This document shows positions 1,260 to 47,834 of a stretch of DNA of 50,317 nt, in pieces (the first letter of the stretch is position 1; each line of letters starts with the position of its first letter). Both the position numbers and the translations under genes were made by a program. The notes under the pieces are model-generated. The model saw nothing but the letters and a program-made list of their open reading frames with translations, ran no database searches and was not told the origin of the DNA. Source of the DNA: a virus (lineage: Duplodnaviria > Caudoviricetes); the IMG/VR virus record IMGVR_UViG_3300037517_002510, positions 1 through 50,317 of that record. One strand, given 5' to 3'.

Positions 1260-1275
1260 GCGCGGCTTACAACAC

Positions 1276-1302
1276 GGGGAGCCCTTTCGGGGGCTCCCCT
1301 TT
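1276..1302 (+). terminator. Rho-independent terminator
   Basis: GGGGAGCCCT-TTCG-GGGGCTCCCC followed by TTT, right after the capsid stop. Confidence 0.8.
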
Positions 1303-1319
1303 CAAAATAGGATGCTAGC

Positions 1320-1586
1320 ATGAAAATGAACGAGCGTGAGATGGATGCGATGGGCCGCATTGGCGGAACGTCATCGAAAAATTTTGAGTTCCCTGTCCCC
1401 GAAGGAGTGGAGCTGGACGGCGAGTCCGGCCGGGCAATGGTGGATTGGGAACTTACCCCGGAGGGCACCCTGCGCGTGATCGCGTTTGACGGCGTGTCGC
1501 TGGCGGAATCTTCCACCCCCACCAACGAAAGCGAGGGTCCGGAGATGGAGATGGATGAAATGGAGGAGGAGGTAGTTTCCGCATGA
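1320..1586 (+). CDS. Small acidic hypothetical protein
   Basis: 88-aa ORF, ATGA-coupled to the next gene. Confidence 0.7.
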   Translation: MKMNEREMDAMGRIGGTSSKNFEFPVPEGVELDGESGRAMVDWELTPEGTLRVIAFDGVSLAESSTPTNESEGPEMEMDEMEEEVVSA

Positions 1587-1990
1587 GCACATTCAACGAT
1601 TTGGTGGAAGGCTGCATCGACTGCCGCCCCGACGGGGAGAAGCTGACAGCCATCGTCGCGCTGCTGGAACGGCAGGCGGGGGCGACCTCTGCCAGCTCCT
1701 ACGCGCAGAATGAGGTTTCCGTGAACGGGAACGACGTTGAGATTCTATCCGCGGCCGGCGCCGGGGTGACGTATCAGCAGGTTGTGGTGCAAAACCGAGG
1801 TATCTATCCGGTGGCCATCAAGTATGGTGCCGGCGCTGATAGCACGGGCGCCAACGGTGAAATCATCCTTGCGGCCGGCTTCGTGGAGAACGACGGAACC
1901 GGGGGCGTGCTGAACGTGGACGGATACCTCGGTGCCATCACGGCCGCCGCGGACAATTTGTCAAAAGTCTCAGTTGTGGTCATCCAGTAA
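1583..1990 (+). CDS. Putative virion structural protein
   Basis: 135 aa, Gly/Ala/Val/Asn-rich beta-type sequence, N-terminal CxxC, in the structural operon. Confidence 0.6.
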   Translation: MSTFNDLVEGCIDCRPDGEKLTAIVALLERQAGATSASSYAQNEVSVNGNDVEILSAAGAGVTYQQVVVQNRGIYPVAIKYGAGADSTGANGEIILAAGFVENDGTGGVLNVDGYLGAITAAADNLSKVSVVVIQ

Positions 1991-1996
1991 CCCATC

Positions 1997-2212
1997 ATGG
2001 GAATGAACATGGTCAACGTCGGGCTGCGAACCGGCCCGGCAAAGCCGAGGCCAAAGGTCCAGATTGGCGTGGTCCGGAGGGCCAGCATGCCGGCAGGGAC
2101 TGTGGTTCCCTTGTTCGGGGACAGTTTCAACTGGTGGTTAAACGGTGCCCCTGTCATGGGTTCCACCGTAACCTTCGATTACGGACTCAACGGCGGACCT
2201 CTAGGAATTTGA
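1997..2212 (+). CDS. Hypothetical protein
   Basis: 71-aa ORF tightly packed between neighbours. Confidence 0.6.
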   Translation: MGMNMVNVGLRTGPAKPRPKVQIGVVRRASMPAGTVVPLFGDSFNWWLNGAPVMGSTVTFDYGLNGGPLGI

Positions 2213-2215
2213 CGT

Positions 2216-3154
2216 ATGGCATGGACAGTTACCACCGGCACCGTAAGCGGCACCGCCGGCTCCCTCATCACCGCCCTCGACCTTGAGCTGGTCACGAACC
2301 GTGGCTGGACCAAGGAGTTCTCGGGCACCAACAAGGCGGCCTACCGCAACAGCGCGCTGGCGCTGGCTCGGAAATACATGCGGGTGGTCGATGATGGCAC
2401 GGCTCCGACCTCCGGCGCTAGGGAATCCCTTGTCCAAGGCTACGCCACGATGTCGACGGTGGATGCCGGCACCGGACAGTTCCCAACCTCGGGCGACGCC
2501 TACATTCGCAAGAGCAGCTTGGCCGACGCCACGGCGCGGACCTACCTTGCGGTGGGCGACGACAAGACGTTCTACCTTTTCGTGCTAACCGGGGACACGG
2601 CCAACCAATACCTAAGCCACGGGTTCGGCGACTTCTACTCTTACAAGCCGGCTGATACGCAGGCGTGCATCCTGTTTGCGCGGCCGGTGAACACCACTTC
2701 CTCGTCCGAGTGGTCCTTCTTCTGGCAATGGAACAACAGCACCTATGGTGCAAATTCAGCCAATTACATTGGCGGAAGCATCGTTGGAGTCCCGGGAGAA
2801 ACGACGCTGTGCAAAACAGTTTCCGGAGCCGTTCAAATCGCAAACTACGGTGCGGAGGCAGTGAACTCGCACATCCCATTCCCGAATGTTGCGGACGGTG
2901 CCATCTGGGTGTCCCCATATCAGATGCTCACCAGCGCGGGCGGAAGCACGGTGGTGGACAAGGTTCTCCGTGGAAAGCTCCGCGGAATTTACTATCCGAT
3001 GCACAACTCCGTGAACTTCAGCGATGGAGACACGTTCAACGGGGCGGGCGACTTGGCGGCGAAATCGTTCAGAATCCTGAAGGGGGTTGGATTTAACGGG
3101 ACTTCTACCTACGTCGGCGCCGTTGAAACCACCGAACCCGAATCCAGCACGTAG
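2216..3154 (+). CDS. Putative tail fibre-associated structural protein
   Basis: 312 aa, Thr/Ser/Gly-rich; GWTKEFSGTNKAAYR resembles segments seen in phage tail-region proteins. Confidence 0.6.
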   Translation: MAWTVTTGTVSGTAGSLITALDLELVTNRGWTKEFSGTNKAAYRNSALALARKYMRVVDDGTAPTSGARESLVQGYATMSTVDAGTGQFPTSGDAYIRKSSLADATARTYLAVGDDKTFYLFVLTGDTANQYLSHGFGDFYSYKPADTQACILFARPVNTTSSSEWSFFWQWNNSTYGANSANYIGGSIVGVPGETTLCKTVSGAVQIANYGAEAVNSHIPFPNVADGAIWVSPYQMLTSAGGSTVVDKVLRGKLRGIYYPMHNSVNFSDGDTFNGAGDLAAKSFRILKGVGFNGTSTYVGAVETTEPESST

Positions 3155-3156
3155 TC

Positions 3157-3618
3157 ATGGCCGCGCTGCCTTACGATGGGACCACGGACAACGGGGTGTT
3201 TGAATCCCGGAGCGCCGTGCTGCTTTCCGCAATCCTTCACCGCAGCGTCCGCACCACCGACGGCGTGCAGTATTGGCTGGGGGCAGGCAAGGACGCCGTG
3301 GTGGGGAATCCGGCACCCGGCTACAAGTTCGAGCGTTACGGCTCGCTCAAGCTGCGGCTGGCCATCTCGTCCGGGACGCACATCGTCTACGCGCAGGTGC
3401 TACAACCGGACGCCTCCGCAACCCGGCCGTTCCTTCGCGTGCTGGCAAACGGCGACATCGGGTTCAACGCACCGCTGACATCAACTGCCGGCTCGTCGAC
3501 CGGGTGGCAGACGTTGGCCGTCTCCGTGACAGCATCGCAGGACGGAGGCGTTCTGGTTGAGCTTTGCAACGCCGACTTGTCAAAACCCTGCTGGTTCGAC
3601 AACGTCACCGTGTTATGA
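3157..3618 (+). CDS. Putative structural/carbohydrate-binding beta-sandwich protein
   Basis: 153 aa; GWQTLAVS...WFDNVTV ending is typical of CBM-like jelly-roll domains. Confidence 0.5.
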   Translation: MAALPYDGTTDNGVFESRSAVLLSAILHRSVRTTDGVQYWLGAGKDAVVGNPAPGYKFERYGSLKLRLAISSGTHIVYAQVLQPDASATRPFLRVLANGDIGFNAPLTSTAGSSTGWQTLAVSVTASQDGGVLVELCNADLSKPCWFDNVTVL

Positions 3619-4637
3619 GCGCCATGACCACCACCATTGGGACCGGCCTTCAGGGTGGCGCCAACCGCTCCGGCTACGTCTACGACGGCCTGACGCAGTA
3701 TCCGGACCTCGCATGGTCGGAAGGCTACGTGTTCCGCGGCGGAACCGGCTGGTGGCAGGAGTGGCTGACGATCTTCCCGACCTACGACGAGGCGACCGCC
3801 AGCGTGACTGGCGCCAATTACGCAACCTTGGGCGGAGGTTCCGTGAACGTCTATGCCAGCAATGCTGGCACTGGATGGACGGAAGCGTTCACGGGCCTGT
3901 TCCCATCCGTTCAGGAAACGGACGCAAACATGGTAGCCTACGTCTACCAACGGGTTAATTTCCGCAACTGCCCTCCGTTCGTGGGCAACAGCGCCCCGTT
4001 CGTGCCGTTTACTTCCGGCGGGCAGTTAACCAACACGCAAAATCGCCGGGCATGCTACGCCCAGACCAATGTCGGGCTTCGTCCAGCTCTGGTGCCTGCC
4101 GCGGTTCCCGATGCGCTGGAGATGAGCTTCGACGGCACAGGCCAGTATTACCTTCGCACCGGGGCCGGGACTAACGGAGGCAATGTCATGGTCCTGTTCC
4201 GGACCACCTCGGCCAACACGCGACTGGCGGCCCACGTTTACGATACCGCAACCCCGGCCAATGTGGGCCTTCAGCTTGGCTGCTCAGGCGGACAGTCGGT
4301 AGTGTGGGCGGCCAAGACGACCGCCCTGACCACTATTGAAAATCCCGGCCCACTGCTGCCTGCGGTCACCGTGAATGACGGCGCAATTCATTCGGTGAGT
4401 GCTTACACAATAGGCAACAGCCCGACTTTCTTGGCCGCGACGGACAGCACGGACCAGACGGCTACCTTTTCCGGTAACGCGGCAATGCCAAGCACTAGTT
4501 TCTCTGTGACGCTCGGTTGTAAAAACGACTTCAGTAATCCGTTCATTGGGGAAATTGTTGAAATTGTTCTCTTTCGCAACGATGCGCCTTTGGCTACTAA
4601 AATAGCCATCAGCCAGCAACTGATCGCCCAATGGTAG
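3615..4637 (+). CDS. Putative receptor-binding protein with LamG/concanavalin-like C-terminus
   Basis: ATG at 3615 overlaps the upstream TGA; C-terminal LG...FIGEIVEIVLFR pattern. Confidence 0.55.
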   Translation: MSAMTTTIGTGLQGGANRSGYVYDGLTQYPDLAWSEGYVFRGGTGWWQEWLTIFPTYDEATASVTGANYATLGGGSVNVYASNAGTGWTEAFTGLFPSVQETDANMVAYVYQRVNFRNCPPFVGNSAPFVPFTSGGQLTNTQNRRACYAQTNVGLRPALVPAAVPDALEMSFDGTGQYYLRTGAGTNGGNVMVLFRTTSANTRLAAHVYDTATPANVGLQLGCSGGQSVVWAAKTTALTTIENPGPLLPAVTVNDGAIHSVSAYTIGNSPTFLAATDSTDQTATFSGNAAMPSTSFSVTLGCKNDFSNPFIGEIVEIVLFRNDAPLATKIAISQQLIAQW

Positions 4638-5359
4638 TCCTCATCTCAGGAACATTTGGAAATGTCGTTTCAACGAAATTCGTGAACACGACTATGGACT
4701 CCTTAACTCGGGCGCTTCCGTTTGGAAGCCAGTGGTCCAAGGTGCGGGTAGGGATTCGGTGCTTGCATGGGTTAGCTACCGCAACCCCGACCCCGGCAGA
4801 GCAAGTCCCGCTTTTCTTCGGACTGGATTCGTCCGCCGCCGCCTACGGTTACCCCAACACGTTCAACACGGTTCCGACCGGCGTGCGGGCGTTGGGGCTA
4901 TGGGTTGGAAACCCGCATCGGACCGGCGTAAGCAACCCGCATTATGACAACACCGCGGCGCAAAACCTGATTATTGACCAGACCGAGGCGACGGTGATTG
5001 TCAGTAGCCAGCTATCAGTTACACCCTACTGGACAGGCGCAACCGCCACCAATCAGGTGCTTGTGCTTGAGTTCACCAAGGGCAGCTCCGCGATTACCGT
5101 CGATGCCTTGTTCCTGAACACGACGGCCACAGCGATATCGGAGGCTACCTTCGACAGCGTAATGGCCGCCGACACGATGGCCGCAGGTCTGGCGTTGCTG
5201 GGGGTTACCTACACGCTGGAAACGCATTCCATTCCCGGAGCCATCGCCCGGGAAGCCGACGGGGCGCTGGACCGAGTGTGCCTTTCCCAATCATTTAACC
5301 CGGCCGGTTCCGGGCAGGAGGTTCAGATGCAAAAACTGGCCATCCGCCGTCTTTACTGA
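4631..5359 (+). CDS. Putative structural protein, paralogue 1
   Basis: 242 aa, similar to the next ORF at both ends. Confidence 0.65.
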   Translation: MVVLISGTFGNVVSTKFVNTTMDSLTRALPFGSQWSKVRVGIRCLHGLATATPTPAEQVPLFFGLDSSAAAYGYPNTFNTVPTGVRALGLWVGNPHRTGVSNPHYDNTAAQNLIIDQTEATVIVSSQLSVTPYWTGATATNQVLVLEFTKGSSAITVDALFLNTTATAISEATFDSVMAADTMAAGLALLGVTYTLETHSIPGAIAREADGALDRVCLSQSFNPAGSGQEVQMQKLAIRRLY

Positions 5360-5361
5360 CC

Positions 5362-6087
5362 ATGCCAGCATACAAGCAGACCAAGACCATTGCCGGGACA
5401 CCCACGGACCTTTTCAAGCTGTCCGCGGACACCTTGGCGCGTGCTTTTGCCATTGGCTCCGACTGGACGCAGCTTCGGTTTGGGTTCCGGGCGCAACTGG
5501 ACGCCGCTCCCGCCGCCGGCTCCGCGGCCATCGTCCGCTTCGACTTCGGCTTGGACCACGAGGCCGGACCGCTTTACCCAAGCACGTTCGACGCCCCAAA
5601 CTCCGGAGCGCATTACATCGTCCAGCGGAACGCCTACCAGCTTGAGAACCGGGTGGCTGGACCACCCGTGGTGTTCTACCCGTCCGCCGGGGCAAACGAT
5701 GACGTGGTGGTGGATGGCCACAACCTCACGGACGACTTCAGTGCCAGCACGGGCCAGTCCCGCCTCAGTGGCAACCCTGACATAATGGGGTGCTACATCA
5801 TCGAAATCACGAAGGGCACCGACTACGAATACCGCTACCTGTTTCCGTCGGCTGACGCGATGGTTCACAAGACCTCCGCAAACCTTGCGACCGCGATGGG
5901 TGTGGCGGACATGGGTCTGGCGCTGCTGGCACTTGGCGGAACTTACACGCTGGCATCCGCCACGATCACCGGGGCCGCCGCACGGGCCACACTTTACGGG
6001 CAGTTAAACCGGGCTTTCGTGTCATGGGCGAAGGACCAAACCGCGCCGATTAACTTCACCGACTTCACCCTCCGCAGGATTGCATGA
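5362..6087 (+). CDS. Putative structural protein, paralogue 2
   Basis: 241 aa; DTLARAFAIGSDWTQLRFGFR aligns with DSLTRALPFGSQWSKVRVGIR. Confidence 0.65.
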   Translation: MPAYKQTKTIAGTPTDLFKLSADTLARAFAIGSDWTQLRFGFRAQLDAAPAAGSAAIVRFDFGLDHEAGPLYPSTFDAPNSGAHYIVQRNAYQLENRVAGPPVVFYPSAGANDDVVVDGHNLTDDFSASTGQSRLSGNPDIMGCYIIEITKGTDYEYRYLFPSADAMVHKTSANLATAMGVADMGLALLALGGTYTLASATITGAAARATLYGQLNRAFVSWAKDQTAPINFTDFTLRRIA

Positions 6088-6497
6088 AACCTGTCTCCAT
6101 TGAGCTGCTGCACGGCTCCCTGAAGCGCGCCGGATTCACGGAGATTCGGTTCGGCGACGAAAACTACGTGGCTCCGTCGAGGTCATGGCTGGGTGAGTTC
6201 GCCAGCTACATCCGGAGCAACGCACCCGCCTACTTCGCCCAGAAGTTCGACTGCGAGAACTTCGCCCGGTGGGCATCCTGCGAGGCAGACAAGGCGCTGT
6301 ATGCGTCTGAGGTTACGGATGCCGGCCACACTTTCGCGGAAGCACGCTGCGTTCTCCAAAAGGACGGTAAATCGCAGATGCACGCGCTAAACGTAGTCCT
6401 GTGTGATGATGAAAAACTTTACGTGCTTGAGCCGCAGAATGGTGGGGTGTTTCTGCTTGATGATTTTGACGCTCTGTGGACCTCTGTGCGGCTGTAA
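6084..6497 (+). CDS. Papain/transglutaminase-like cysteine protease (agglutinin C-terminal-like domain)
   Basis: FDCENFA...HALN...YVLEPQ gives a Cys-His-Glu triad pattern. Confidence 0.65.
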   Translation: MKPVSIELLHGSLKRAGFTEIRFGDENYVAPSRSWLGEFASYIRSNAPAYFAQKFDCENFARWASCEADKALYASEVTDAGHTFAEARCVLQKDGKSQMHALNVVLCDDEKLYVLEPQNGGVFLLDDFDALWTSVRL

Positions 6498-6537
6498 GCA
6501 TGAGCCGGCAGGTCCGCCGATTATGCGGTAACCCACC

Positions 6538-6846
6538 GTGGACAATTACTTTCAACTTTTACAAGACCACAGTGATCTTTTACAAGACCACGGTGAGCAA
6601 ATAGCCGTGCTTCAAATCGAAATGAAGGCCACAAAAACTGAACTCGCGGAGTCCAAGATGCGGGAACGCGACTTGGAAAAGGCTATCAACCATCACAACG
6701 TCACGCTGGCGCAGTGGGGCGTCATTCTCTCGGCACTGGTGTTCGTGGCCGGCACCGTGACCACGCTTGCCGTCCGATCTTCCTATGAATCCGTGAAGGC
6801 TGCCATCATATCGGAAAACGCGAACCGAAACTCACGCCCACAATGA
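6538..6846 (+). CDS. Coiled-coil plus single-TM membrane protein (lysis cluster)
   Basis: Heptad region followed by hydrophobic WGVILSALVFVAGTVTTLAV. Confidence 0.65.
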   Translation: MDNYFQLLQDHSDLLQDHGEQIAVLQIEMKATKTELAESKMRERDLEKAINHHNVTLAQWGVILSALVFVAGTVTTLAVRSSYESVKAAIISENANRNSRPQ

Positions 6847-7031
6847 ACAAACTTTTTGAAATCATCGTTCGTGCCAGCATTCAAGCCGTTGCCGGCGCGA
6901 TGATGTCGAAGGGAATCGTGATTTCAGACGGACACATCGAACAGATTGCCGGCGCGGCGACCATCATCGTCACCGTAGTCTGGTCGGTCTGGTCAAAAAA
7001 CAAGGCAGCCCATGAAAAACCACAAGATTAG
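6843..7031 (+). CDS. Putative holin
   Basis: 62 aa, two hydrophobic segments, basic C-terminus. Confidence 0.6.
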   Translation: MNKLFEIIVRASIQAVAGAMMSKGIVISDGHIEQIAGAATIIVTVVWSVWSKNKAAHEKPQD

Positions 7032-30759: not shown

Positions 30760-31812
30760 ATGAATGAACCTTCATCCCTCGCCGTGGCGACTGTCCCGGC
30801 AGCCGGTGGCGCAACCACCATCTCCGCCTTCTCCTCCGAGCTCGCCTTTGTCTCCGCGCAGCGGATGGCCAAGGCGCTCTGCTCGTCCACCATCGTCCCG
30901 GAAATTTACCGGGGCGAAGCGAACCTCGGCAACACGATCATCGCGTTGGAGCTTTCGCACCGGGTCGGCGCCTCCGTGATGGCAGTCATGCAGTGCATGA
31001 CCCCGATTCACGGCAAGCCAAGCTGGTCGTCCACGTTCCTCATCGCCACCGTAAACACCTGCGGCCGGTTCTCCCCGCTGCGATTCCGCTGGCAGGGGCA
31101 GGAAGGCACCGACGCTTGGGGTTGCCGCGCCGTGGCCAAGGAGAAGGCAAGCGGCGAGGAGCTGGTCGGCAGCCTGATCACGATTGCGATGGCCAAGATG
31201 GAGGGGTGGTATTCCAAGGCGGGCAGCAAATGGAAGACGATGCCCGAGCAGATGCTTACCTACCGGGCCGCCGCGTTCTGGACCCGGGCCTACGCGCCTG
31301 AGCTTTCGCTGGGCATGGTGACCACCGACGAGGCGCATGACATCGCGGCCACCGAACGCAGGCGCGGCCCGTCCATCGACCAGTTGCGCGAGCCAGCACC
31401 AGCCAGCGTCACCGTGGAATCGACGGTCGTGGTGGAATCCACGCCGGCAACGCATCCGGTGTGGGGTGAGCAGCGGTTGGACACTGCGCCTCCGCAGCCC
31501 GAGCAGGCGGTGGAAGTCGCTGCCGAACCCGTGGCCGTTGCTCCTAAACCCGATGCCGCGCCCACTACTGCCCCGACTCAGCCCGTTTCCGGCGTCCCGG
31601 AAACCGTCGAGGACGTGCTGGCACAGTGCGGCATCACGTATGACCAGCTCAAGTCGCTGGCCACGGATAGCCAGTGGTGGGAGAAGCCCGAGGAATACAG
31701 CGAACCGAAGTGGCTGCCGGCCGAGGTTGTCTCATGGATTCTGCGGAATCACCGCGGGATTGCGCGGGCGGCGAAGAAGATGTTGGCTATGAAGAAGCCG
31801 GAGGCGGCGTAA
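30760..31812 (+). CDS. RecT/Redbeta-like single-strand annealing protein
   Basis: IVPEIYRG...IHGKPSWSSTFLIA...KWKTMPEQMLTYRAAAFWTR; near a RecE-like gene. Confidence 0.75.
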   Translation: MNEPSSLAVATVPAAGGATTISAFSSELAFVSAQRMAKALCSSTIVPEIYRGEANLGNTIIALELSHRVGASVMAVMQCMTPIHGKPSWSSTFLIATVNTCGRFSPLRFRWQGQEGTDAWGCRAVAKEKASGEELVGSLITIAMAKMEGWYSKAGSKWKTMPEQMLTYRAAAFWTRAYAPELSLGMVTTDEAHDIAATERRRGPSIDQLREPAPASVTVESTVVVESTPATHPVWGEQRLDTAPPQPEQAVEVAAEPVAVAPKPDAAPTTAPTQPVSGVPETVEDVLAQCGITYDQLKSLATDSQWWEKPEEYSEPKWLPAEVVSWILRNHRGIARAAKKMLAMKKPEAA

Positions 31813-31839
31813 ACCACCACCTGCTAGCAAAATCAAACC

Positions 31840-32076
31840 ATGAAAAAACCAAACCTGTCCGTCGGACGCGGCGAAAAACTTCCCGTGTCCAAGGGCGCCG
31901 GGCTCACCGCCAAGGGACGCGCCAAATACAACGCGGCCACCGGCAGCAAGCTCAAGGCGCCCGCACCAAAACCCAAGACTGCCGCCGACAAGGCCCGGAA
32001 GAAATCCTTCTGCGCCCGCAGCGCCGGCTGGGATGGCGAGCGCGGGAAGGCGGCACGGAAGCGGTGGAAGTGCTGA
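31840..32076 (+). CDS. Small basic phage protein (DUF6321-like)
   Basis: GLTAKGRAKYN...RKKSFCARS...KRWKC. Confidence 0.7.
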   Translation: MKKPNLSVGRGEKLPVSKGAGLTAKGRAKYNAATGSKLKAPAPKPKTAADKARKKSFCARSAGWDGERGKAARKRWKC

Positions 32077-32143
32077 TTTTGGCGAGCCGCACTGCGCCCA
32101 GCGCAACGGCAAAGAGTAGCCACCGAACGCCGGGCCTAGGCGT

Positions 32144-32229
32144 GACAGCCGGAGAGACGGAACCTTGTCCGCTGGTGAACCGCGGAACGCTGAACGGTGG
32201 AAAGATGACCGAGACAGCCGGAGAGACGG
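32144..32229 (+). repeat. Two copies of the 17-nt GACAGCCGGAGAGACGG
   Basis: Exact copies at 32144-32160 and 32213-32229 in an intergenic region. Confidence 0.85.
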
Positions 32230-32247
32230 CACCAACTCAAAACGCAC

Positions 32248-33027
32248 ATGACACAGGAACAATACCGGGCACACCCGGCCATCAACATCTCGGCGCTCAA
32301 GGCATTCCGCCGCTCGCCTCTGCACGCAAGGCACGGCTTCGAGGAGGAGCACGAACCGTCCGACGCCATGAAGATCGGTAGCCTGCTGGACCACCGCATC
32401 CTCGGCTCCGACTACCTTTACACCACGTCCCCGTTCGATGACTTCCGCACCAAGGAGGCTCGGGCATGGCGCGACGAGCAGGACCACCGCGGCGTGACCG
32501 TGTTCAAGCAGGAGGAGATCGAGCGGGTCAACTGCATGGTGGATTCGCTGCGCGCACACCCGATGGCCATGCGGTTCCTGACCAAGGGCACCCCGCAGAA
32601 GGTGGTGATAGCACCCTACGAATCGCCGGGCGGGAAGACCTGCGACCGCAAGGGCATGATCGACTGGACGCCCGCCGAAATCCCCGTGCTGGTGGACCTG
32701 AAGAAGACGCGCAACGCCTCGCCGTTCGGGTTCTCCCGGCAGGTGATGGACCTGTGCTATCATGCTCAGGCCGCCTACTACCTTGACCTGTGGAAGCACA
32801 CGTTCATGGAGACTCGCGGCTGGGTGTGGGTCTGCGTCGAGGACATGGCGCCCTATGCCGTGGCCGTCTACTCAGCGGCGCCCGACATGCTGGACGCGGG
32901 CGACAAGCTCTGGCGTTCGTGGCTGAACCAGTGGCTTGAGTGCTCGGACACGGACATGTGGCCGGGCTACAACGGCGATGACATCACGGAGCTGGAACTG
33001 CCGGGCTGGGCGAAAGGAAAGGAATGA
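32248..33027 (+). CDS. PD-(D/E)xK exonuclease (RecE/ExoVIII-like, DUF3799-type)
   Basis: YRAHPAINISALK...IGSLLDH...KGMIDW...VDLKKT...YHAQAAYY. Confidence 0.85.
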   Translation: MTQEQYRAHPAINISALKAFRRSPLHARHGFEEEHEPSDAMKIGSLLDHRILGSDYLYTTSPFDDFRTKEARAWRDEQDHRGVTVFKQEEIERVNCMVDSLRAHPMAMRFLTKGTPQKVVIAPYESPGGKTCDRKGMIDWTPAEIPVLVDLKKTRNASPFGFSRQVMDLCYHAQAAYYLDLWKHTFMETRGWVWVCVEDMAPYAVAVYSAAPDMLDAGDKLWRSWLNQWLECSDTDMWPGYNGDDITELELPGWAKGKE

Positions 33028-42277: not shown

Positions 42278-44503
42278 TCAGCCTTGGCTTCGCAGGATGG
42301 TCCAGAGGCGCTTGGTCTTCGTTCGGCGGAAGGAATACCGGTCGGGCTGTTGGACGGCAAGGCGGGCCAGATAAACGCCAAGGCGGGCCACGTTTGAGAT
42401 GAGGTTCCGGGCGTCCCGGCTCCGGCGGCTGTCGATGAGCTTCGTTTCGAGGTCGGACGGGCTGCCCTCCCACGAGGTAATCGGGAACTCCTCCCCGCTG
42501 CTGGCGAAGATCACGTCGGAGATCAGTTCGTCGAGCTGGGTTTCCGGGGAGGTGGCACACAGCTCCTCAAGGACGGACGGGTGCTGGTAGTGCCGGAGGC
42601 CGGTCCGGGGCTCGGCTTCGGTTTCCGGGATTTCGAGCGCGTCAACGAAGGCGGCGAATGCTGGCAGCTCGGTGAGCATGCTGGCATACTCGTCGAACTC
42701 GCAGGTCCGGCCGCCCGTAAGCGGGACCACCCGGCGAATGCAGGACAGGATGATGACCTTGTCCCGCATGGACTCCTCCATCGGGGGCAGGACTTGCAGG
42801 TTTTCCGGCTCGTTGTTGAGGCAGGCGGACATCGCCCAGATCGGCCGGAGGGAGACGGCGTCCCGGCCCTTGGCGTGGCAGGACTGCTGCGGCGAGAACA
42901 GCATTGACTTGATGTTGGAGCCGAACGCCCGGCGGGAATCCATGTCGCGGCCGGGGCAGTCGTCGTCGATGACGAGGTGCTCCGCCCAGAAGTGGTCCCC
43001 GTTGAACGGGGTCTTCTCGGACATGAACGGGTAGGGCTTGGCGGACCGGCCGCCGAACAGCGGGGTGAGGATGCCCGACTGCACGTAGGTCTTGCCGCAG
43101 TTTGCCGGCCCGACGAGGACGAGCAGGTGCCCGGCCCGCCACTGACCCGTCCGGATGGCCTTCCGGCGCAGGTGGACCCATAGCAGGAACCGCCAGTATT
43201 GCGCGTCGTCGGCGCCCAGCATGTTATAGAGGAAGTTCAGGAGCCGCTGGCAGTCGCCCGGGACGGCGATGACCGGGTTGGGGTGCGTCGTGACGAGGAC
43301 GTTCTGGCCGGCGACGGGTCCGGCGCGGTGCCCGGCGAGCGGGCCGACGTAGGTCCACTTGGAGTTTTTCTGTTGGTCGGACAGCTCCCGCTCCAGCTCC
43401 GAGGTGCCGGAGTCGTCGTTGAAGGTGTCCAGCCGGCGCTCCGCCCGCAGCAGCACGCGCAGGGCGTCGAGCGTTATGGTGTTCCACTCCCCGGAGTCGG
43501 CCCGGATGCGATACTTGCCGGCGAACCGGTCGAACGTCCACTGCTCGGCGGATGCTGGCAGCGTGGGCTTGGGGGTTTTGTCCGGCGGGGGCGGCGGGGC
43601 ATCCGCCGACGCGAGGATGCCGGCGACGCTGATGTTTTCCGGAATCTCGTCGGCGATGTCCCAGCCGTCCGGAAGATCAGGGGGCAGGACGACCTGCTTG
43701 GAGCCCGGGTTCGCAGCCCGGATGAAATCCATCGCGGCCCGGCCGGGGGCGTCGTTGTCCGGCCAGAGGATGAGCTTCCGGCCACGGAGCGGGGACAGGT
43801 TGGCCTTCCGGACGGCGGCGGCCCCGCCCTGCCACGTCACGCAGACGAGGTGCGGGAACTGCTTCGCCGCGGCGTCGCAGGTTTTCTCGCCCTCCACGAC
43901 GAGCACGGTGTCGTCCGGCCGGCGGGCCAGCAGGTGCTGGTTGTAAATCGGCCTGCCCGTATTCAGGAAATCCCCAAGCCCATGCTTCCAGTGGGCATCG
44001 TTGTCGCGGTCCGGCTCCCCGCCGGACGGCGGGAAGAATCCCAGCGGCATGACATCCTTCACCTTCTTGCCGTCGGCGTTGATGCGGTCATACCGCAGCA
44101 CGTAAAGGCACGGCGTCCCGTCGGCTTCGTGATAGCACCATGCTTTTGACGGCAGCATGCTGCCCGCCCACTTTTGCAACGGGTCGAACCTCCGCGGCTT
44201 CCCGTCGCCCTTGTATTCCGGCAGCCCAAGGAACTCCCGCGCCCACTTGGCGGCCGGGCCGACCTTTGCGAAGTTCAGCGCGTTCTGGACGAGGGAGAGC
44301 AGGTCACCGCCCTTGCCGGCGGCGTGGTCGAACCACATGCCGGCCTTGGGTCCGACCAGCTCGACGATCATGCTCTCCCCCTTCTCGCCGGCCACGCTGC
44401 CGACGAACCACTGCTTGCCGCGTTGCTGTCCGTTCGGGAGCAGTTCCCGGCAGACCTCCTCGGCGCGGTCGGAAAGGAGGTCGTTCAATTCGGGAAGGGT
44501 CAT
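42278..44503 (-). CDS. TOPRIM primase-helicase fusion
   Basis: VVEGEKT...WQGG...WPDNDAPG TOPRIM domain; C-terminal P-loop GPANCGKT and VIDD. Confidence 0.85.
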   Translation of the reverse strand: MTLPELNDLLSDRAEEVCRELLPNGQQRGKQWFVGSVAGEKGESMIVELVGPKAGMWFDHAAGKGGDLLSLVQNALNFAKVGPAAKWAREFLGLPEYKGDGKPRRFDPLQKWAGSMLPSKAWCYHEADGTPCLYVLRYDRINADGKKVKDVMPLGFFPPSGGEPDRDNDAHWKHGLGDFLNTGRPIYNQHLLARRPDDTVLVVEGEKTCDAAAKQFPHLVCVTWQGGAAAVRKANLSPLRGRKLILWPDNDAPGRAAMDFIRAANPGSKQVVLPPDLPDGWDIADEIPENISVAGILASADAPPPPPDKTPKPTLPASAEQWTFDRFAGKYRIRADSGEWNTITLDALRVLLRAERRLDTFNDDSGTSELERELSDQQKNSKWTYVGPLAGHRAGPVAGQNVLVTTHPNPVIAVPGDCQRLLNFLYNMLGADDAQYWRFLLWVHLRRKAIRTGQWRAGHLLVLVGPANCGKTYVQSGILTPLFGGRSAKPYPFMSEKTPFNGDHFWAEHLVIDDDCPGRDMDSRRAFGSNIKSMLFSPQQSCHAKGRDAVSLRPIWAMSACLNNEPENLQVLPPMEESMRDKVIILSCIRRVVPLTGGRTCEFDEYASMLTELPAFAAFVDALEIPETEAEPRTGLRHYQHPSVLEELCATSPETQLDELISDVIFASSGEEFPITSWEGSPSDLETKLIDSRRSRDARNLISNVARLGVYLARLAVQQPDRYSFRRTKTKRLWTILRSQG

Positions 44504-44519
44504 GCGTTCGGGGTGTGGG

Positions 44520-44765
44520 TCAGGTGTGCTTGGTTGATGTGGCGTGGATGCTCCGCCAGTCGGAAAGGTTGTGCTCGGCGACCACGTTGCCCGGGTTCGG
44601 GACGAGTCGGCAATAGAATCCCGGCATCGTGGACCATGCCCCGGGGTCGGAGACGGTGATGGCGGAGACGTTGGAATGTTCGTTGGCCGCCCACAGGTAG
44701 AAACCCGGGGAGGTGGGGTTTTCCCGGTCAAGCCGGACGCCGTTCCAGATGAGGTATGTGTTCAT
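44520..44765 (-). CDS. Hypothetical protein
   Basis: MNTYLIWNG...PTSPGFYLW. Confidence 0.55.
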   Translation of the reverse strand: MNTYLIWNGVRLDRENPTSPGFYLWAANEHSNVSAITVSDPGAWSTMPGFYCRLVPNPGNVVAEHNLSDWRSIHATSTKHT

Positions 44766-44910
44766 GGTATTTGAAAAAACCCGGGCAGGACGACGGTAAC
44801 TGTCCAAGGTTGTCGCCGCTCGGCCCGGTCACCCCTCACACGAGGGGTGGAAAGTGGTTGGTGGTGGTCTGTTATCCGTTCGCGCCGCAATTTTGCGGCT
44901 CACTCAACTG

Positions 44911-45549
44911 TTAGACCTCGTTACCCCACACGTCCCATCCGTCGCGTTTCCGACGGGCGAACATTTCGAGATACGGGCCGGGTGATACACTCTCCACGAG
45001 TCTTTGGAAGGCTTCCGGCTTGCGGGAGTGTTTTGGGCCGGTGTCCTTTTCTGGCCGCGTCCAGTTCCACCACGTCGAGTCCACACGCTGCTTGGCGATG
45101 TCGAGTCCACGGCGGCAGAACAGGACGTGCTCGGTTGTCTGGACGAACGCGCCACCGAAGCCGAGGCCGCGAGGCGTCTTTGCCCATGTGAGCAGCGCGA
45201 CGGGTCGGAAGCTCCAAGCGCGGGCGAGCGCGTAGGTTTGTTCGATGTAGGCATTGATTGTCCAGATGTAGAGGTGTGCATTTTCGGCGGCGGCGTCGGC
45301 GACTGGCAGAGCTTTGATTTCATCGAGCGTCATTGTGTTGTAGTTCATCGCTGCTGGCGTCCACGTCCCTTTCGGGCTTCCTGTCGAGGCTCTTTCAGCG
45401 CGGCGTGTGTCCTCTCCGAATTTCACATCCCACGGCGGGTCAGCGACGATGGTTGAGTATTCGCCCACGAGGTCTAACAACGCGCTGGAGCGAACGGGGA
45501 TGAGCGCGGGCACGTCCTCGTTGCAATCGGTTGTCATTGGCGCGCTCAT
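44911..45549 (-). CDS. MT-A70 family N6-adenine methyltransferase 1
   Basis: IVADPPW...HLYIWT...TEHVLF...HSRKP...LEMFAR...GWDVWGNE. Confidence 0.92.
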   Translation of the reverse strand: MSAPMTTDCNEDVPALIPVRSSALLDLVGEYSTIVADPPWDVKFGEDTRRAERASTGSPKGTWTPAAMNYNTMTLDEIKALPVADAAAENAHLYIWTINAYIEQTYALARAWSFRPVALLTWAKTPRGLGFGGAFVQTTEHVLFCRRGLDIAKQRVDSTWWNWTRPEKDTGPKHSRKPEAFQRLVESVSPGPYLEMFARRKRDGWDVWGNEV

Positions 45550-45576
45550 CCCCGTCGCTCAGCTTGGTCGTTCGAC
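45472..45576 (+). repeat. attC-like site B
   Basis: GTCTAAC-aacgc-GCTGGAGCGAACGGGGATGAGCGCG...CGCGCTCATCCCCGTCGCTCAGC-ttggtc-GTTCGAC; 5/6-nt spacers and two extra bases in the left arm. Confidence 0.85.
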
Positions 45577-46193
45577 ATTTCTACATCGCTGGCGATTTCG
45601 TTGCCCCATGCGGACCAGCCGAGTCGGCGGGTTCGAGCGAACATTTCCAGACGTGGGCCGGGTGATACTCGCTCAACGAGGTCGTAGAACGCATCCGGCT
45701 TTTCAGAGTGTCGGCCACGCGGCCAGTTGAAGTATGTGCCGCCAGTTGTTGCCGCCACACGCCCGCCCGACCCGAATGGGTTGCCCTCGCGCCTTCCCTT
45801 GCGGCACACCAAGACGTGCTCCGTGTTGCACTGGAAGCGACCGACACCGAGGCCGGGCTTGCACCATGTCAGCATCGTTGCCACTTCATCGAATCCCCAC
45901 GCCTTTGCCACCATGTAGCCCCAGTCCACATGCTGCGTCAGCACCCACAGCCACAGGTGGCATTGTGGCGCGGCGGGCGGAGACAGTTTGCAGATGTCAT
46001 CCAGTAGCATCGTCGGGTAGTGCTTTTGAGGCCCAGCCTTGTCCACCGTTGCGCGGCGTGGGTTGTCCGCGTGCAGAGAGGGACGCCAAGGAGGGTCTGC
46101 GACGATACAACGAAAAGCCGAACAAGGCGCTGCACCTAATGACTGCCCCGCCACGTCTGCCGCGAGTTCGAGAGTCTGATTGAGGGCAGTCAT
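45546..46193 (-). CDS. MT-A70 family N6-adenine methyltransferase 2
   Basis: IVADPPW...HLWLW...TEHVLV...HSEKP...LEMFAR...GWSAWGNE. Confidence 0.92.
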   Translation of the reverse strand: MTALNQTLELAADVAGQSLGAAPCSAFRCIVADPPWRPSLHADNPRRATVDKAGPQKHYPTMLLDDICKLSPPAAPQCHLWLWVLTQHVDWGYMVAKAWGFDEVATMLTWCKPGLGVGRFQCNTEHVLVCRKGRREGNPFGSGGRVAATTGGTYFNWPRGRHSEKPDAFYDLVERVSPGPRLEMFARTRRLGWSAWGNEIASDVEMSNDQAERRG

Positions 46194-46214
46194 AGGTGAG
46201 CTTGGTCGTTCGAC
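46117..46214 (+). repeat. attC-like site C
   Basis: GCCGAAC-aaggc-GCTGCACCTAATGACTGCCC...GGGCAGTCATAGGTGAGC-ttggtc-GTTCGAC. Confidence 0.85.
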
Positions 46215-46462
46215 ATCATCCGCCAGCCACTATCTTTGAGTGGCGCGTAGCAGTTCATTGCCGGGTGTGTGCAGTCCGTGAGATACCAGCCTAACAGTCC
46301 ACGCAGTTTTGCTGTCCGCGTTCCAATGAAGTTCGGATGCGTGATTTCCACTTCCACGTCTTGCGGCGGGAAGGTTTCAGTTGTCCGATGCCATGCCGAA
46401 CAAGGCGCTGGAGCACAACTGCCGCCCCGCGCTTTTGTTTCTAGTATTTGTGTTGAGTTCAT
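46190..46462 (-). CDS. Hypothetical cassette protein (DUF551-like WH..E.FP motif)
   Basis: 90 aa, ATGA-coupled on both sides. Confidence 0.6.
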   Translation of the reverse strand: MNSTQILETKARGGSCAPAPCSAWHRTTETFPPQDVEVEITHPNFIGTRTAKLRGLLGWYLTDCTHPAMNCYAPLKDSGWRMMSNDQAHL

Positions 46463-46522
46463 ACGTTTTTGGTGTCGTCCACGGTCGCCGTCGGCCCGCC
46501 GTCGCTGACCTTATCGTTCTCC
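46395..46522 (+). repeat. attC-like site D (arms poorly matched, likely chimeric)
   Basis: GCCGAAC-aaggc-GCTGGAGC...GCTGACC-ttatc-GTTCTCC. Confidence 0.6.
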
Positions 46523-46659
46523 CCCGCGCACTCCGCGCAAAGGTTGTCGCCGACGCAGTTCAGGTGCCGGCGCCATGCCGTCCGCTGCCGTTCGTCCTCG
46601 CGGCACAGCTCGTCGGCAATCGGGTCGGTGTCCTCGATGGGCTCGGGTTCGGGTTTCAC
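46459..46659 (-). CDS. Hypothetical protein
   Basis: GTG start overlapping the upstream TGA; CxxC; C-terminus encoded in attC D. Confidence 0.55.
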   Translation of the reverse strand: MKPEPEPIEDTDPIADELCREDERQRTAWRRHLNCVGDNLCAECAGENDKVSDGGPTATVDDTKNV

Positions 46660-46895
46660 GGCTTTCCCTTTTTGGCTTGGTCCCATTCTTCAACCGCCAC
46701 CTCGTCTTCCGTGAATACGGATTCACGCAGTCGGAAGGCAATCTCATCCCCCGCCGACTCCAGCCGGCGGATGCGCTCGCGGGCCGCGGCCAGCTCGCGT
46801 TCGAGTTGCTCAAACGATTTGGCCGCAACCACCCAGCCGCCATTGTCCGACCAAAACTTTTCCGTATCAGTCCTCGGTGTTGGTGTGTCGCTCAT
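46656..46895 (-). CDS. MSDTP-family coiled-coil protein
   Basis: MSDTPTPRTD...LERELAAARERIRRLE. Confidence 0.7.
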   Translation of the reverse strand: MSDTPTPRTDTEKFWSDNGGWVVAAKSFEQLERELAAARERIRRLESAGDEIAFRLRESVFTEDEVAVEEWDQAKKGKP

Positions 46896-47116
46896 TTCAA
46901 CCTCCGTTCCGCGTCTTCGATCATCGCAACCAACTGTTTCGCGTTATCAAATGCCCAACGCTCGGTTTTGATCGTGAAGTATTTTCCAGCGCCTCCGTCG
47001 TGAGATTCGATTTCGATGTATTGGCCAATCGTGCTGTCGTCGCAGCAGTCGTTTTCCTGCCCATAGGTCAGTTGCCCGGCTTCCATGACCGGCTCTTTTT
47101 TTGGTGTGTCGCTCAT
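46892..47116 (-). CDS. Hypothetical protein with MSDTP N-terminus
   Basis: ATGA-coupled, 74 aa. Confidence 0.65.
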   Translation of the reverse strand: MSDTPKKEPVMEAGQLTYGQENDCCDDSTIGQYIEIESHDGGAGKYFTIKTERWAFDNAKQLVAMIEDAERRLK

Positions 47117-47325
47117 GCTTTTGCCTCCTTGGCTTTGGTCCATTGGTGAGTTTGTAACGTCGGGTGGTGAAATTGCTGGAATAACGCATCCCCCGCCTGC
47201 TCCAGCCGGCGGATGCGCCCGTTGGCCGCGGCTAGCTCGCGTTCGAGTTGGCGGGCGAAGTCAACGGAGACGCGCCCTGTTCCAAATTGCGCCTCATTGG
47301 TCCTTGGTGTTGGTGTGTCGCTCAT
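47113..47325 (-). CDS. MSDTP-family coiled-coil protein
   Basis: MSDTPTPRTN...FARQLERELAAANGRIRRLE. Confidence 0.7.
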   Translation of the reverse strand: MSDTPTPRTNEAQFGTGRVSVDFARQLERELAAANGRIRRLEQAGDALFQQFHHPTLQTHQWTKAKEAKA

Positions 47326-47474
47326 TCCTCCTCCTGTTGGTTCATTTCCCATTCCTTTGCCTCCAGCCACGCGATGCGCTGCTGCTCCGGGGTCGGCGTG
47401 CTGATTCCGCAGAGCACCCCCAGCCGCTCCTCGTAGCGGTATCTCGCCTCGGGTTGCAACGTGTCAGGGTCCAT
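47322..47474 (-). CDS. Hypothetical protein (50 aa)
   Basis: MDPDTLQPEARYRYEERLGVLC..., translated by hand, ATGA-coupled. Confidence 0.55.
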   Translation of the reverse strand: MDPDTLQPEARYRYEERLGVLCGISTPTPEQQRIAWLEAKEWEMNQQEEE

Positions 47475-47489
47475 GTAAGTCAATGTATG

Positions 47490-47834
47490 TCACCTTAAGT
47501 CTAGGTTGTCAACCCCGTCCGCCCGGACGGCGATTCCCCCGTGCTCCCGGACCACGCGCATCCATGTCTCTTGGTTCGGCCGGAGCCCCTTTCCCGGGCG
47601 CTTTACCTCGACGGACAGGAACACGGCGAGCTTGGTCCCCACCATGTCCGGGGTGACCGTCACGGACTTCCACCCGATGAGGTCGCCGGAACCGGGATGC
47701 AGCCCCATCGTGACGGGCCGGTGGTTGGGCGGCTCGCCGACGAAGCCGAAGCCGACTTGGTTGCGGAACACGCGCACGTCCGTCCGGCCGCCGAGGGCAC
47801 GCATGACGACGGCTTGGATTTGGGCTTCGGTCAT
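47490..47834 (-). CDS. VRR-NUC nuclease / Holliday junction resolvase-like
   Basis: EAQIQ...FRNQVG...GSGDLIG...VEVKRP...Q..W...GGIA. Confidence 0.85.
   Translation of the reverse strand: MTEAQIQAVVMRALGGRTDVRVFRNQVGFGFVGEPPNHRPVTMGLHPGSGDLIGWKSVTVTPDMVGTKLAVFLSVEVKRPGKGLRPNQETWMRVVREHGGIAVRADGVDNLDLR

Follow-up and report, generated by a model that had tools for sequence, protein, structure and literature searches.

Reversed, protein-coding attC-type sites at gene junctions in a phage genome and in related loci

Genes and sites at the locus

The window, meaning the whole stretch of 50,317 nucleotides analysed here, is a complete 50.3-kb phage genome (IMGVR_UViG_3300037517_002510), in which no match to a tyrosine recombinase or integron integrase (intI) was found anywhere. 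Two methyltransferase genes and a gene of unassigned function lie head to tail on its minus strand, with hairpin-forming sites at their junctions. Cassette boundaries were placed at crossover points read from the sequence, between the second and third bases of AAC (written AA/C below). The features are:

44911-45549, minus strand: ORF of 212 aa, MT-A70 methyltransferase 1 (Pfam MT-A70, E 3e-18)
45546-46193, minus strand: ORF of 215 aa, MT-A70 methyltransferase 2 (Pfam MT-A70, E 7e-15)
46190-46462, minus strand: ORF of 90 aa, function unassigned (no Pfam family)
46459-46686, minus strand: ORF of 75 aa, phage gene upstream of the array (ORF list)
45468-45579, minus strand: attC site B, the bottom strand being gene sense (32.5 bits, E 1.6e-8, model R1)
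46113-46217, minus strand: attC site C (93.9 bits, E 1e-29, model R1)
46395-46520, minus strand: attC site D, hybrid or decayed (both core triplets, non-complementary arms)
44911-45570, minus strand: cassette 1, 660 bp, remainder of attC B and methyltransferase 1
45571-46208, minus strand: cassette 2, 638 bp, remainder of attC C and methyltransferase 2
46209-46516, minus strand: cassette 3, 308 bp, remainder of attC D and the 90-aa ORF (46190-46462)
44900-44916, minus strand: array end, a gene-sense core with the TAA stop of methyltransferase 1, then an attI-like junction

The two methyltransferases share 40% identity, and the core of the second (residues 27-200) is 83% identical to a phage methyltransferase in another locus (L001) that has no attC and has other termini. 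No relatives of the 90-aa ORF were found in viral contigs. At all three junctions the stop and start codons overlap by four nucleotides, as ATGA (45546-49, 46190-93 and 46459-62).

Site B (112 nt), with its R' triplet AAC at the complement of 45570-45572 and its R'' core at the complement of 45472-45478, covers both the methyltransferase 1 start codon (45549) and the methyltransferase 2 stop, and contains a 15-nt perfect inverted repeat (I3). Site C (105 nt; R' AAC the complement of 46208-46210, R'' core that of 46117-46123) likewise covers the methyltransferase 2 start (46193) and the point where the 90-aa ORF stops. In site D, the AAC of R' lies at the complement of 46516-18, and the complement of 46395-46401 forms the R'' core; the ATGA overlap is in the middle of the site. 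Both methyltransferase start codons fall within the 5' arm of the stem, and around 25 N-terminal residues of each enzyme are encoded by the loop and the 3' arm. Conversely, the last 8 codons and stop of methyltransferase 2 lie inside the attC of cassette 1, and attC D, through its 5' arm and its loop, supplies the last 19 codons of the 75-aa ORF. Read on the minus strand, each of the GTT triplets (45570-72, 46208-10 and 46516-18) is an in-frame AAC (Asn) of the upstream ORF, 8, 6 and 19 codons ahead of its stop.

Sites B and C are intact, with full stems and both bulges, and it is the minus (gene-sense) strand that carries the two bulged bases in its 3' arm, the feature by which the bottom strand is defined. 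Both fold better than shuffled sequence, with RNA parameters (z -5.42 for B and -4.18 for C, 0/200 shuffles each) and with DNA parameters (z -4.5/-5.8 and -2.5/-2.5), and the ATGA starts sit inside stems of -49 to -56 kcal/mol. Site D shows no fold above shuffles (z +0.30 RNA, +1.0/+1.1 DNA), and covariance model R1, which was built from the phage elements, gives only a 56-nt partial match there (46391-46446, 16 bits). Over 27 nt, the 5' arm of D shares 96% identity with another attC, in locus L080, and homology between the window and that locus is confined to attC sites, the cargo not being homologous. Rfam matches to hairpin B were sub-threshold and miRNA-like only, and were dismissed.

The sites are also evident as repeats. 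A 16-mer is identical at 46117 and 46395, with a three-mismatch copy at 45472; six window matches to it were found at up to 3 mismatches, against 1.35 expected, and none of 100 shuffles reached six. An 18-mer is identical at 45561 and 46199 (2 matches, 0.07 expected). The array end contains 13 nt that are perfectly complementary (I8) to the sequence flanking R'' of attC B, at a distance of 545 nt, and its triplet and the 7 bases past the crossover are identical to the junction adjoining intI in a phage contig, G006; in the window, the attI-like junction has no intI beside it.

An earlier note, made from the sequence, had proposed much of this arrangement, and most of it held. The plus strand is the attC top strand, the bulged bases being on the minus-strand 3' arm; all cargo ORFs of the window are minus-strand, antisense to normal cassettes, a layout that related arrays do not universally share; and the three ATGA overlaps lie within attC sites. 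As claimed, the AAC of the core reads in frame as Asn at sites B, C and D, while methyltransferase 1 instead ends with its own TAA in the core. The claim that the sites are attC-type held for B and C, on architecture and on their integrase-linked relatives; D is a hybrid with unpaired arms.

The array stretch is present in 18 lake-water sequencing runs, and positions 44000-47600 are identical in contigs of four lake runs dated 2020-2024, in which no joints at cassette boundaries were found. The unchanged array therefore gives no indication that shuffling is under way; as rare variants are lost from contigs, the identity of these is uninformative on excision. Two joints were listed, 44323/44574 and 44471/45281, with sides of 21 nt and in low-depth contigs, and RNA runs contained only small shares of the stretch. 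A BLAST search of GenBank phages with 44800-47400 gave no match. Close relatives of the phage were sought via its primase and none was found, the best long match being 32% over residues 86-365, with a 63-residue stretch reaching 50%; there was thus no homologous array for comparison.

The wider family: structure, frame and integrases

The element recurs in 49 other loci, comprising viral contigs and MAGs, often as arrays, and in 106 metagenome stretches. Two to five sites are present in 25 of the 50 loci, all on the same strand in 24 of these 25. The model search produced 136 rows, which fell to 95 once opposite-strand rows overlapping a stronger match had been removed by hand; with the three window sites this made 98, and 93 after duplicate contexts were dropped.

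Covariation was assessed in an alignment of 44 sequences, A2, to which site C belongs. Its inner 10-bp stem is invariant by construction of the search pattern. Beside this fixed stem, all eight variable pairs change on both sides and remain 97% paired, giving a covariation score of 0.268; shuffles score 0.130, with 0/500 as high, and slid partners 0.05-0.10. Within the AAC of R', T is the partner of the two A columns in 33 and 38 of the 44 rows, and G that of the C column in 31. Nine pattern matches in genome contigs were left out of A2 and of later counts: six look like chance or terminator palindromes (L072, L074, L078, L081, L084, L086) and three are a different perfect palindrome (L075, L085, L088). 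Two loci with exact 18-mer matches to the 5' arm (L029, L030) were also dropped, the word lying inside an unrelated gene with no hairpin.

Divergent copies keep the same layout despite unrelated stems: a 7-nt R'', a 5-nt spacer, 3 bp, a bulge, 5 bp, a bulged T, then stem and loop. AAC is recognised in 87 of the 93 non-redundant sites. The extended RYYYAAC/GTTRRRY consensus is matched by R'' in site B and by the terminal R' of cassette 1; in C, D and most family members, AAC is preceded by G and GTT is followed by C. One locus (L028) has no 5' R box, and another (L032), like site D, joins arms of different types. Folding with DNA parameters does not favour the bottom strand, the other strand giving a slightly better fold in 53 of 83 sites; G-U pairs favour the gene-sense strand, 46 vs 8. 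Apart from L028, no sites were found by motif scan and model search in the MT-A70 relatives L001-L028 (L028 itself is absent from the model search, the same contig having been searched as L035), and the element is therefore not tied to MT-A70.

Pfam assignment of 61 gene-sense cargo ORFs gave 14 N6_N4_Mtase, 3 MT-A70, 3 C-5 DNA_methylase, 2 Dam and 1 Mom, these families overlapping. This Pfam-confirmed cargo, mostly DNA methyltransferases, lies in bottom-strand sense with the attC at its 5' end. Opposite-strand ORFs of related arrays have Pfam matches in 2 of 10 cases, hence the reversed orientation is not universal.

The reading frame across the core is conserved. In 59 of 73 cases, including by hand tally about 30 of 34 divergent sites, the AAC reads in frame as Asn; the other 14 upstream frames are not AAC+0. 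Of the 63 upstream frames that stay open over 40 or more codons in phase with the AAC, 62 have their stop within the site. The family includes 51 ATGA-linked starts, with a Shine-Dalgarno-like tetramer at only one of them. This lack of a Shine-Dalgarno sequence may reflect a habit of the host phylum.

Cassette behaviour was seen at the crossover. Homology starts or stops at the 5' AAC in six of seven locus pairs that share one flank only, the remaining left breakpoint lying at ATG rather than AAC (L057), and the informative right ends also stop at AAC (2/2). When the two cassette ends were compared as partners of the R'' flank in 40 cassettes, the distant end paired better in 21 and the adjacent end in 10, with no difference in 9; paired runs of at least 5 occur in 17/40 with the distant cassette end vs 5/40 with the adjacent end.

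The link to integron integrases comes from both bacterial and phage sequence. In a Verrucomicrobiae MAG (L099), R1 gave six matches (E 5e-8 to 1e-4) and one weak one, all on the integrase strand, with an IntI gene (352 bits against a cut-off of 265) no more than 11 kb away; two other IntI-bearing stretches of 11-12 kb from those MAGs gave none and one weak match (E 0.38). The identity of the bulges and their 5-bp spacing in the phage-type sites match the sites beside this IntI, and the bacterial array has the canonical layout, with genes on the other strand from the bottom strand. Of ten other array-bearing viral contigs tested, two encode an IntI over the cut-off, G006 and G010, and in both the array is directly upstream of intI and in the same direction. 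Both recombinases score best as integron integrases, at 281 and 319 bits vs 96-140 for Xer models. G006 carries a terminase (E 6e-112) and a tail fibre protein and G010 head proteins (PHROGs), though the terminase family phrog_2 was not found in either.

These surveys bear on the general claims of the earlier note. That ORFs start inside attC sites held on sequence, through the ATGA-linked starts, as did the claim that the upstream ORF ends inside the same attC. The antisense overlap with a conserved frame, for which it proposed to look, was found in related arrays, and some relatives encode an integron integrase. The proposal of frame-standardised modules is supported, the frame at the core not being random; stop-start coupling and the avoidance of polarity remain inference in the absence of expression data.

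Interpretation and rival explanations

Positions 44900-46520 are likely a three-cassette integron-type array without its own integrase (a CALIN) in the early operon of the phage, with recombination being inferred. The CALIN call rests on two intact sites and one hybrid within 1.1 kb, found with our own model R1 and not with IntegronFinder. The sequence comparisons show that the sites have an attC-type architecture, covary and are homologous to sites next to integron integrases, that the cassettes have their boundaries at AAC, that the genes are reversed and that the frame is conserved.

In this layout, each gene runs along the strand whose folding gives the recombinogenic attC bottom-strand hairpin, and so the attC is located at the 5' end of its own gene. 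The attC encodes the start and about 25 N-terminal residues of that gene, together with the last residues and the stop of the gene upstream. Crossover would occur at AA/C in the 5' R box, inside the in-frame Asn codon in most family members, and because this point is in a standard frame, any joined cassette would terminate inside the next attC, usually at ATGA. Movement of cassettes is inferred to depend on an integron integrase supplied by the host or by a related phage, the latter being plausible because two related phage contigs encode one directly downstream of the array. In the mRNA, the hairpin may hide a start codon that has no Shine-Dalgarno sequence, such that translation would depend on the ribosome finishing the previous gene. 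The system as a whole is inferred to shuffle DNA-modification (anti-restriction) genes.

A bolder reading, which may as readily prove wrong as right, is that phages of Verrucomicrobiota-type hosts run their own mirror-image integron, shuffling DNA-modification genes against restriction. A standard phase across AA/C would leave any order made by the integrase correctly terminated and stop/start-coupled, intI would be the last gene of the operon in some phages, and the cassettes would be silent in a bacterial integron.

The best-surviving alternative, itself unlikely, is that the array is a fossil of ancestral integron recombination that no longer recombines, with the coding overlap a tolerated compaction without coupling. 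It is favoured by the missing integrase and the attI-like junction without intI, by the broken site D, and by the identity of the array in the 2020-2024 contigs. Against it, sites B and C keep both bulges and full stems, the frame and ATGA layout are conserved across divergent sites (62/63), and related phages have intact IntI genes.

It is about as unlikely that the hairpins are only mRNA structures for coupling or stability, attC-like by convergence, with genes swapped by homologous recombination within the conserved hairpin. In support, the hairpins enclose starts without a Shine-Dalgarno sequence, the G-U pairs favour the gene-sense strand, L032 and site D mix arm types as if exchanged inside the site, and the phage may carry a recT gene, mentioned in unchecked notes on its sequence. 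However, the same model recovers arrays next to integron integrases, in the strand orientation expected of them, and the breakpoints cluster at AAC and not within the conserved stem. Moreover, cassette ends pair with their own distant R'', which a circular intermediate needs and an RNA hairpin does not.

Repeats left by tandem duplication of a methyltransferase gene, with no site function, would account for the paralogous enzymes (40% identity) and the 640-690-nt spacing of the repeat copies, but this is all but excluded, as the 90-aa ORF has the same flanks around a different body, the element also stands ahead of unrelated genes at 49 other loci, and the homology between the window and L080 lies in attC sites, not cargo.

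Relation to known systems and significance

Integron attC sites carry AAC in the bottom-strand R', extrahelical bases near L'' at about 16 and 23/24, and a 5-6-nt spacer, and span 57-141 bp (Nivina 2016, PMC5027507). The phage-type sites share with them the imperfect hairpin with AAC/GTT R boxes, the unpaired spacer, the two L''-arm bulges, the variable loop and a length of 56-140 nt, as well as same-strand arrays with gene-sized spacing, unit boundaries at AA/C and homologous sites beside IntI. They differ in that the gene is preceded by its own attC and reads in the sense of the bottom strand, and in that the attC is translated, providing a start, an N-terminus, and the C-terminus and stop of the neighbour. 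In addition, the first bulge is C or T and not the usual G, the bulge spacing is 5 bp and not 6, and the R boxes are mostly GAAC/GTTC rather than RYYYAAC/GTTRRRY.

The earlier note had also supposed that this may be an undescribed phage-adapted cassette class; phage attC clusters as such have already been published. Phage-borne clusters, some with an integrase, have been described with five DNA methyltransferases in the cargo, read as restriction protection (Qi et al. 2023, PMC9892861). The cassettes of those phage CALINs were reported to be 'oriented in the same direction, typical of bacterial arrays', whereas no mention of reversed genes, coding attC sites, a fixed frame or stop/start overlaps was found in the relevant sections of that paper, supplementary tables excluded. 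The reversed, coding layout was likewise not found in the open-access literature searched.

Three other systems invite comparison. ORF-11 of attI1 in class 1 integrons crosses the recombination point, takes its stop from the core of the inserted cassette and couples the next gene (PMC8876359); it is a single leader ORF at attI in the normal orientation, whereas in the window each cassette gene spans a crossover point, and does so on the opposite strand. Synthetic attC sites have been embedded in protein-coding sequence, as linkers and lacZ segments (Nivina et al. 2020, PMC7439510); these were engineered, while the present family is natural and located at gene junctions. The PeSL (promoter-stem-loop) cassettes in hyperplastic regions of T4-type phages are non-coding promoter elements swapped by homologous recombination. 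Like the present elements, they are short conserved hairpins flanking swappable accessory phage genes; they are not known to have AAC/GTT cores or an integrase.

Integrons are usually viewed as bacterial gene-capture devices with non-coding sites, one promoter and one direction. Here, a natural site family doubles as protein-coding sequence on the recombining strand, which was formerly shown only by design, and a fixed phase across the crossover would act as a common standard by which shuffled genes stay expressed. The comparison of methyltransferase 2 with its cassette-free counterpart, 83% identical except for the attC-encoded termini, bears on the origin of cassettes. If the interpretation is true, phages gain a private pool of anti-restriction cassettes, which would mirror the anti-phage defence cassettes that chromosomal integrons have been reported to store (preprint 10.1101/2024.07.02.601686).

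Genes, junctions and strand of the array

Direct terminal repeats bound the 50,317-bp window, a complete virus record that encodes a large terminase, a DNA helicase and a primase/helicase. The minus strand carries four successive ORFs, each joined to the next by a 4-nt ATGA overlap:

46459-46686, minus strand: 75-aa ORF, first of the four
46190-46462, minus strand: 90-aa ORF, second of the four
45546-46193, minus strand: 215-aa ORF, an MT-A70 DNA methyltransferase (methyltransferase 2)
44911-45549, minus strand: 212-aa ORF, an MT-A70 DNA methyltransferase (methyltransferase 1)

The two methyltransferases share 40% identity. Immediately upstream of the array (46656-47370, minus strand), three small ORFs of 79, 83 and 85 aa have a common repeated start region, and 64 nt are 91% identical between two of them (repeats D2 and D3); their products are paralogues with no link to attC.

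Two words, one of 16 nt and one of 18 nt, are repeated at the ORF junctions far above shuffle frequency. On the gene-sense strand, the junctions at 45546-45549 (site B, 45468-45579) and 46190-46193 (site C, 46113-46217) each lie in a long imperfect hairpin (-56.3 and -48.8 kcal/mol; z -5.4 and -4.2) that none of 200 shuffles equalled, and the third junction (site D, 46395-46520) showed no fold (z +0.3).

As described by Nivina et al. (2016), the recombinogenic bottom strand of attC is 57-141 bp long, with a 5′ AAC in the R′ box and a 3′ GTTRRRY in R″; its spacer of 5-6 nt is unpaired, and the L″ arm carries extrahelical bases, as a rule near positions 16 and 23/24. Read from its 3′ end, the gene-sense strand begins with an R″ of 7 nt and a spacer of 5 nt; 3 bp then lead to a bulge at position 16, and a further 5 bp to a bulged T at position 22. 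Since this layout of R″, spacer and bulges fits the published definition, gene sense corresponds to the attC bottom strand. The earlier note had proposed antisense cassettes with attC sites coding on the bottom strand: its strand call held, from the bulge and core layout, and its observation was borne out at sites B and C, but at D only in part. There, both core triplets are present, but the site is a hybrid that cannot fold: 27 nt of its 5′ arm are 96% identical to the compared locus L080, which places that arm with one attC type, and its 3′ arm resembles another.

A family of sites and its integrases

Scans of DNA with the element pattern returned 8, 39 and 19 stretches from viral and genome contigs, and 106 from metagenome contigs. 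An alignment of 44 distinct copies was assembled, in which the 10 inner pairs are set by the search pattern and so are uninformative. The next eight pairs, outside this fixed stem, all vary on both sides and are 97% paired; the covariation score was 0.268, against 0.130 for shuffled alignments (none of 500 as high) and no more than 0.10 when partners were slid. In the window, the covariance model derived from this alignment scored 93.9 bits at site C and 32.5 bits at site B (E 1.6e-8); in site D it made only a 56-nt partial match. Applied to 78 loci, it gave 136 rows, reduced to 98 sites at 50 loci once opposite-strand shadows were removed by hand. Half of these loci (25/50) hold two to five sites, which share a single strand in all but one of them (24 of 25). 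The model matched nothing in 27 MT-A70 relatives (L001-L027). Divergent copies have unrelated stems and 30-70-nt loops but keep the plan: after AAC come a short internal loop and 3-4 bp, then a one-base bulge with 5 bp separating it from a bulged T; the main stem and loop follow, and GTT closes the 3′ end.

Other stretches related to the element were observed. The site-C type of the window recurs almost unchanged on contig C59 of MAG G003 (L097, 12049-12154), at a distance of 6 kb from fragmented integrase genes. This copy lacks the 5′ AAC and has one extra loop base that puts the ATG out of frame; it looks like a decaying element in a bacterial chromosome. Perfect long palindromes in Chthoniobacterales and Terriglobia MAG contigs (L075, L085 and L088) have the same 10-nt inner stem with other flanks, and look like a different repeated palindromic element.

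The Verrucomicrobiae MAG G003 encodes an integron integrase that scores 352 bits (cut-off 265); in the 11 kb after it come six model matches (E 5e-8 to 1e-4) and one weak match, all on the integrase strand. The plausible genes of this stretch, including an FGE-sulfatase, lie on the strand opposite to the sites, which is the canonical layout. The window family differs from class 1 integron sites in its bulge identities, 5-bp spacing and GAAC/GTTC boxes, in all of which it agrees with the sites beside this integrase. Two further 11-12-kb stretches from the same MAGs, each with an IntI match, gave no model match and one weak match (E 0.38), respectively.

Among ten other array-bearing viral contigs searched, two carry an integrase above the cut-off; the search of the window found none. 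The proteins of contigs G006 and G010 score best as integron integrases (281 and 319 bits, versus 96-140 for Xer models). G006 also encodes a terminase (E 6e-112) and a tail fibre, and G010 head proteins. The G006 array, at 33.5-35.6 kb, lies directly upstream of intI (31668-32591) in the same direction; in G010 two sites precede intI. These integrase-adjacent arrays are independent support for the attC-type identity. One strand of G006 (L115, 14642-16640) carries in order the array, an AT-rich attI-like spacer of ~45 nt, intI, a helicase and a primase; judged from sequence alone, intI would be the final gene of the cassette operon and share its transcript.

Cargo, reading frame and translation

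Cargo was defined as 61 non-redundant gene-sense ORFs starting within a site. Pfam families, whose counts may overlap, comprised N6_N4_Mtase (14), MT-A70 (3), C-5 DNA_methylase (3), Dam (2), Methyltransf_11 (4) and Methyltransf_25 (4), with one each of Mom, PAPS_reduct, DUF1643 and HNH. The longer open frame is in gene sense in 28 of 41 cassettes, and two of ten opposite-strand ORFs tested had Pfam matches, to YunG (the MAG locus L083) and Clp protease (L059). Gene-sense orientation is not universal in related arrays. The L083 stretch (249-6885 of a Verrucomicrobia MAG contig) has five sites on one strand of a bacterial contig and mixed cargo, a gene-sense methyltransferase-like ORF and the opposite-strand YunG-family gene.

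AAC is a codon of the longest upstream frame at 59 of 73 sites (other phases, 12 and 2), a rule followed by ~30/34 divergent sites in a hand tally. Where at least 40 codons are open upstream in the AAC frame (63 sites), that frame stops inside the site in 62, with an ATGA overlap to an ORF of at least 40 codons in 37. The downstream frame is less uniform (phases 51, 21 and 12 of 84). A Shine-Dalgarno-like tetramer precedes only one of 51 ATGA-linked starts. Translational coupling, also claimed by the earlier note, is an inference from geometry and absent ribosome-binding sites, held with less confidence than the structural reading.

For methyltransferase 2, all candidate starts before the catalytic DPPW motif fall within site C; across its core the protein matches L001, a phage enzyme with other termini and without a site, at 83% identity. 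For methyltransferase 1, later TTG/GTG starts just beyond site B remain possible.

Only its first 25 residues are common to methyltransferase 2 and a relative from an AT-rich phage (L028), the remainder being a different enzyme class. At this locus, also listed as L035 (3990-4845 in L028 coordinates), the attC leader is carried by a GC-rich methyltransferase of N6_N4 type, flanked by AT-rich genes that belong to an unrelated phage; an ATGA overlap links it to the upstream gene, and its 5′ R box is absent. This is a lone cassette in a foreign genome.

Inferred cassette movement, the array end and known systems

All-against-all comparison of sites yielded nine pairs with only one flank in common, seven of them distinct. 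At the left breakpoints, homology begins or ends at the 5′ AAC in six of the seven, one of which joins the same upstream gene to two different attC-plus-cargo units; the seventh (L057) breaks at the ATG, not the AAC. Both informative right breakpoints end at AAC, and the rest end in diverged cargo or at a contig end. A circular cassette also requires its 3′ end to pair with the R″ of the attC belonging to that unit, a partner that lies hundreds of bases upstream in an array. Among 40 non-redundant cassettes, pairing was better with this distant partner than with the adjacent one in 21 and worse in 10, with 9 ties; uninterrupted runs of at least five pairs occur in 17/40 versus 5/40. Cassette 1 of the window ends (44909-44921) in 13 nt perfectly complementary to the R″ flank of site B (inverted repeat I8). 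Homology between the window and L080 is limited to three attC sites (83%, 80% and 96%), with unrelated cargo in a different order. Movement of the units as cassettes is inferred from breakpoints and end pairing, with no recombination observed; the array is the same in contigs of four lake runs (2020-2024), a result as compatible with activity as with its absence.

On the end of cassette 1 the earlier note is not followed: the cassette's own TAA sits within the core. Past the crossover (44900-44916), seven bases and the GTT triplet (+ strand) are identical to the intI-side junction of G006, and 4/7 of these bases are in common with the G010 junction. Two small hairpins and then a primase gene lie downstream, with no integrase. 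Because of the identity to the G006 junction, the window seems to retain the attI side of an integron whose integrase was lost, an attI remnant inferred from sequence alone. The last cassette gene of G006 likewise reads through the crossover, its stop being supplied by the attI side, mirroring ORF-11 of class 1 integrons.

From phages, Qi et al. (2023) described 17 attC clusters together with some integrases and a cargo that included five methyltransferases, and showed that IntI1 recombined phage attC sites; phage-borne attC arrays with methyltransferases were therefore already known, and synthetic coding attC sites already exist. No paper in the literature searched described bottom-strand-sense genes, translation of attC sites or a constant reading phase across the crossover. 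The feature is real, and its structure is most likely that of an attC-type array that is reversed and coding.
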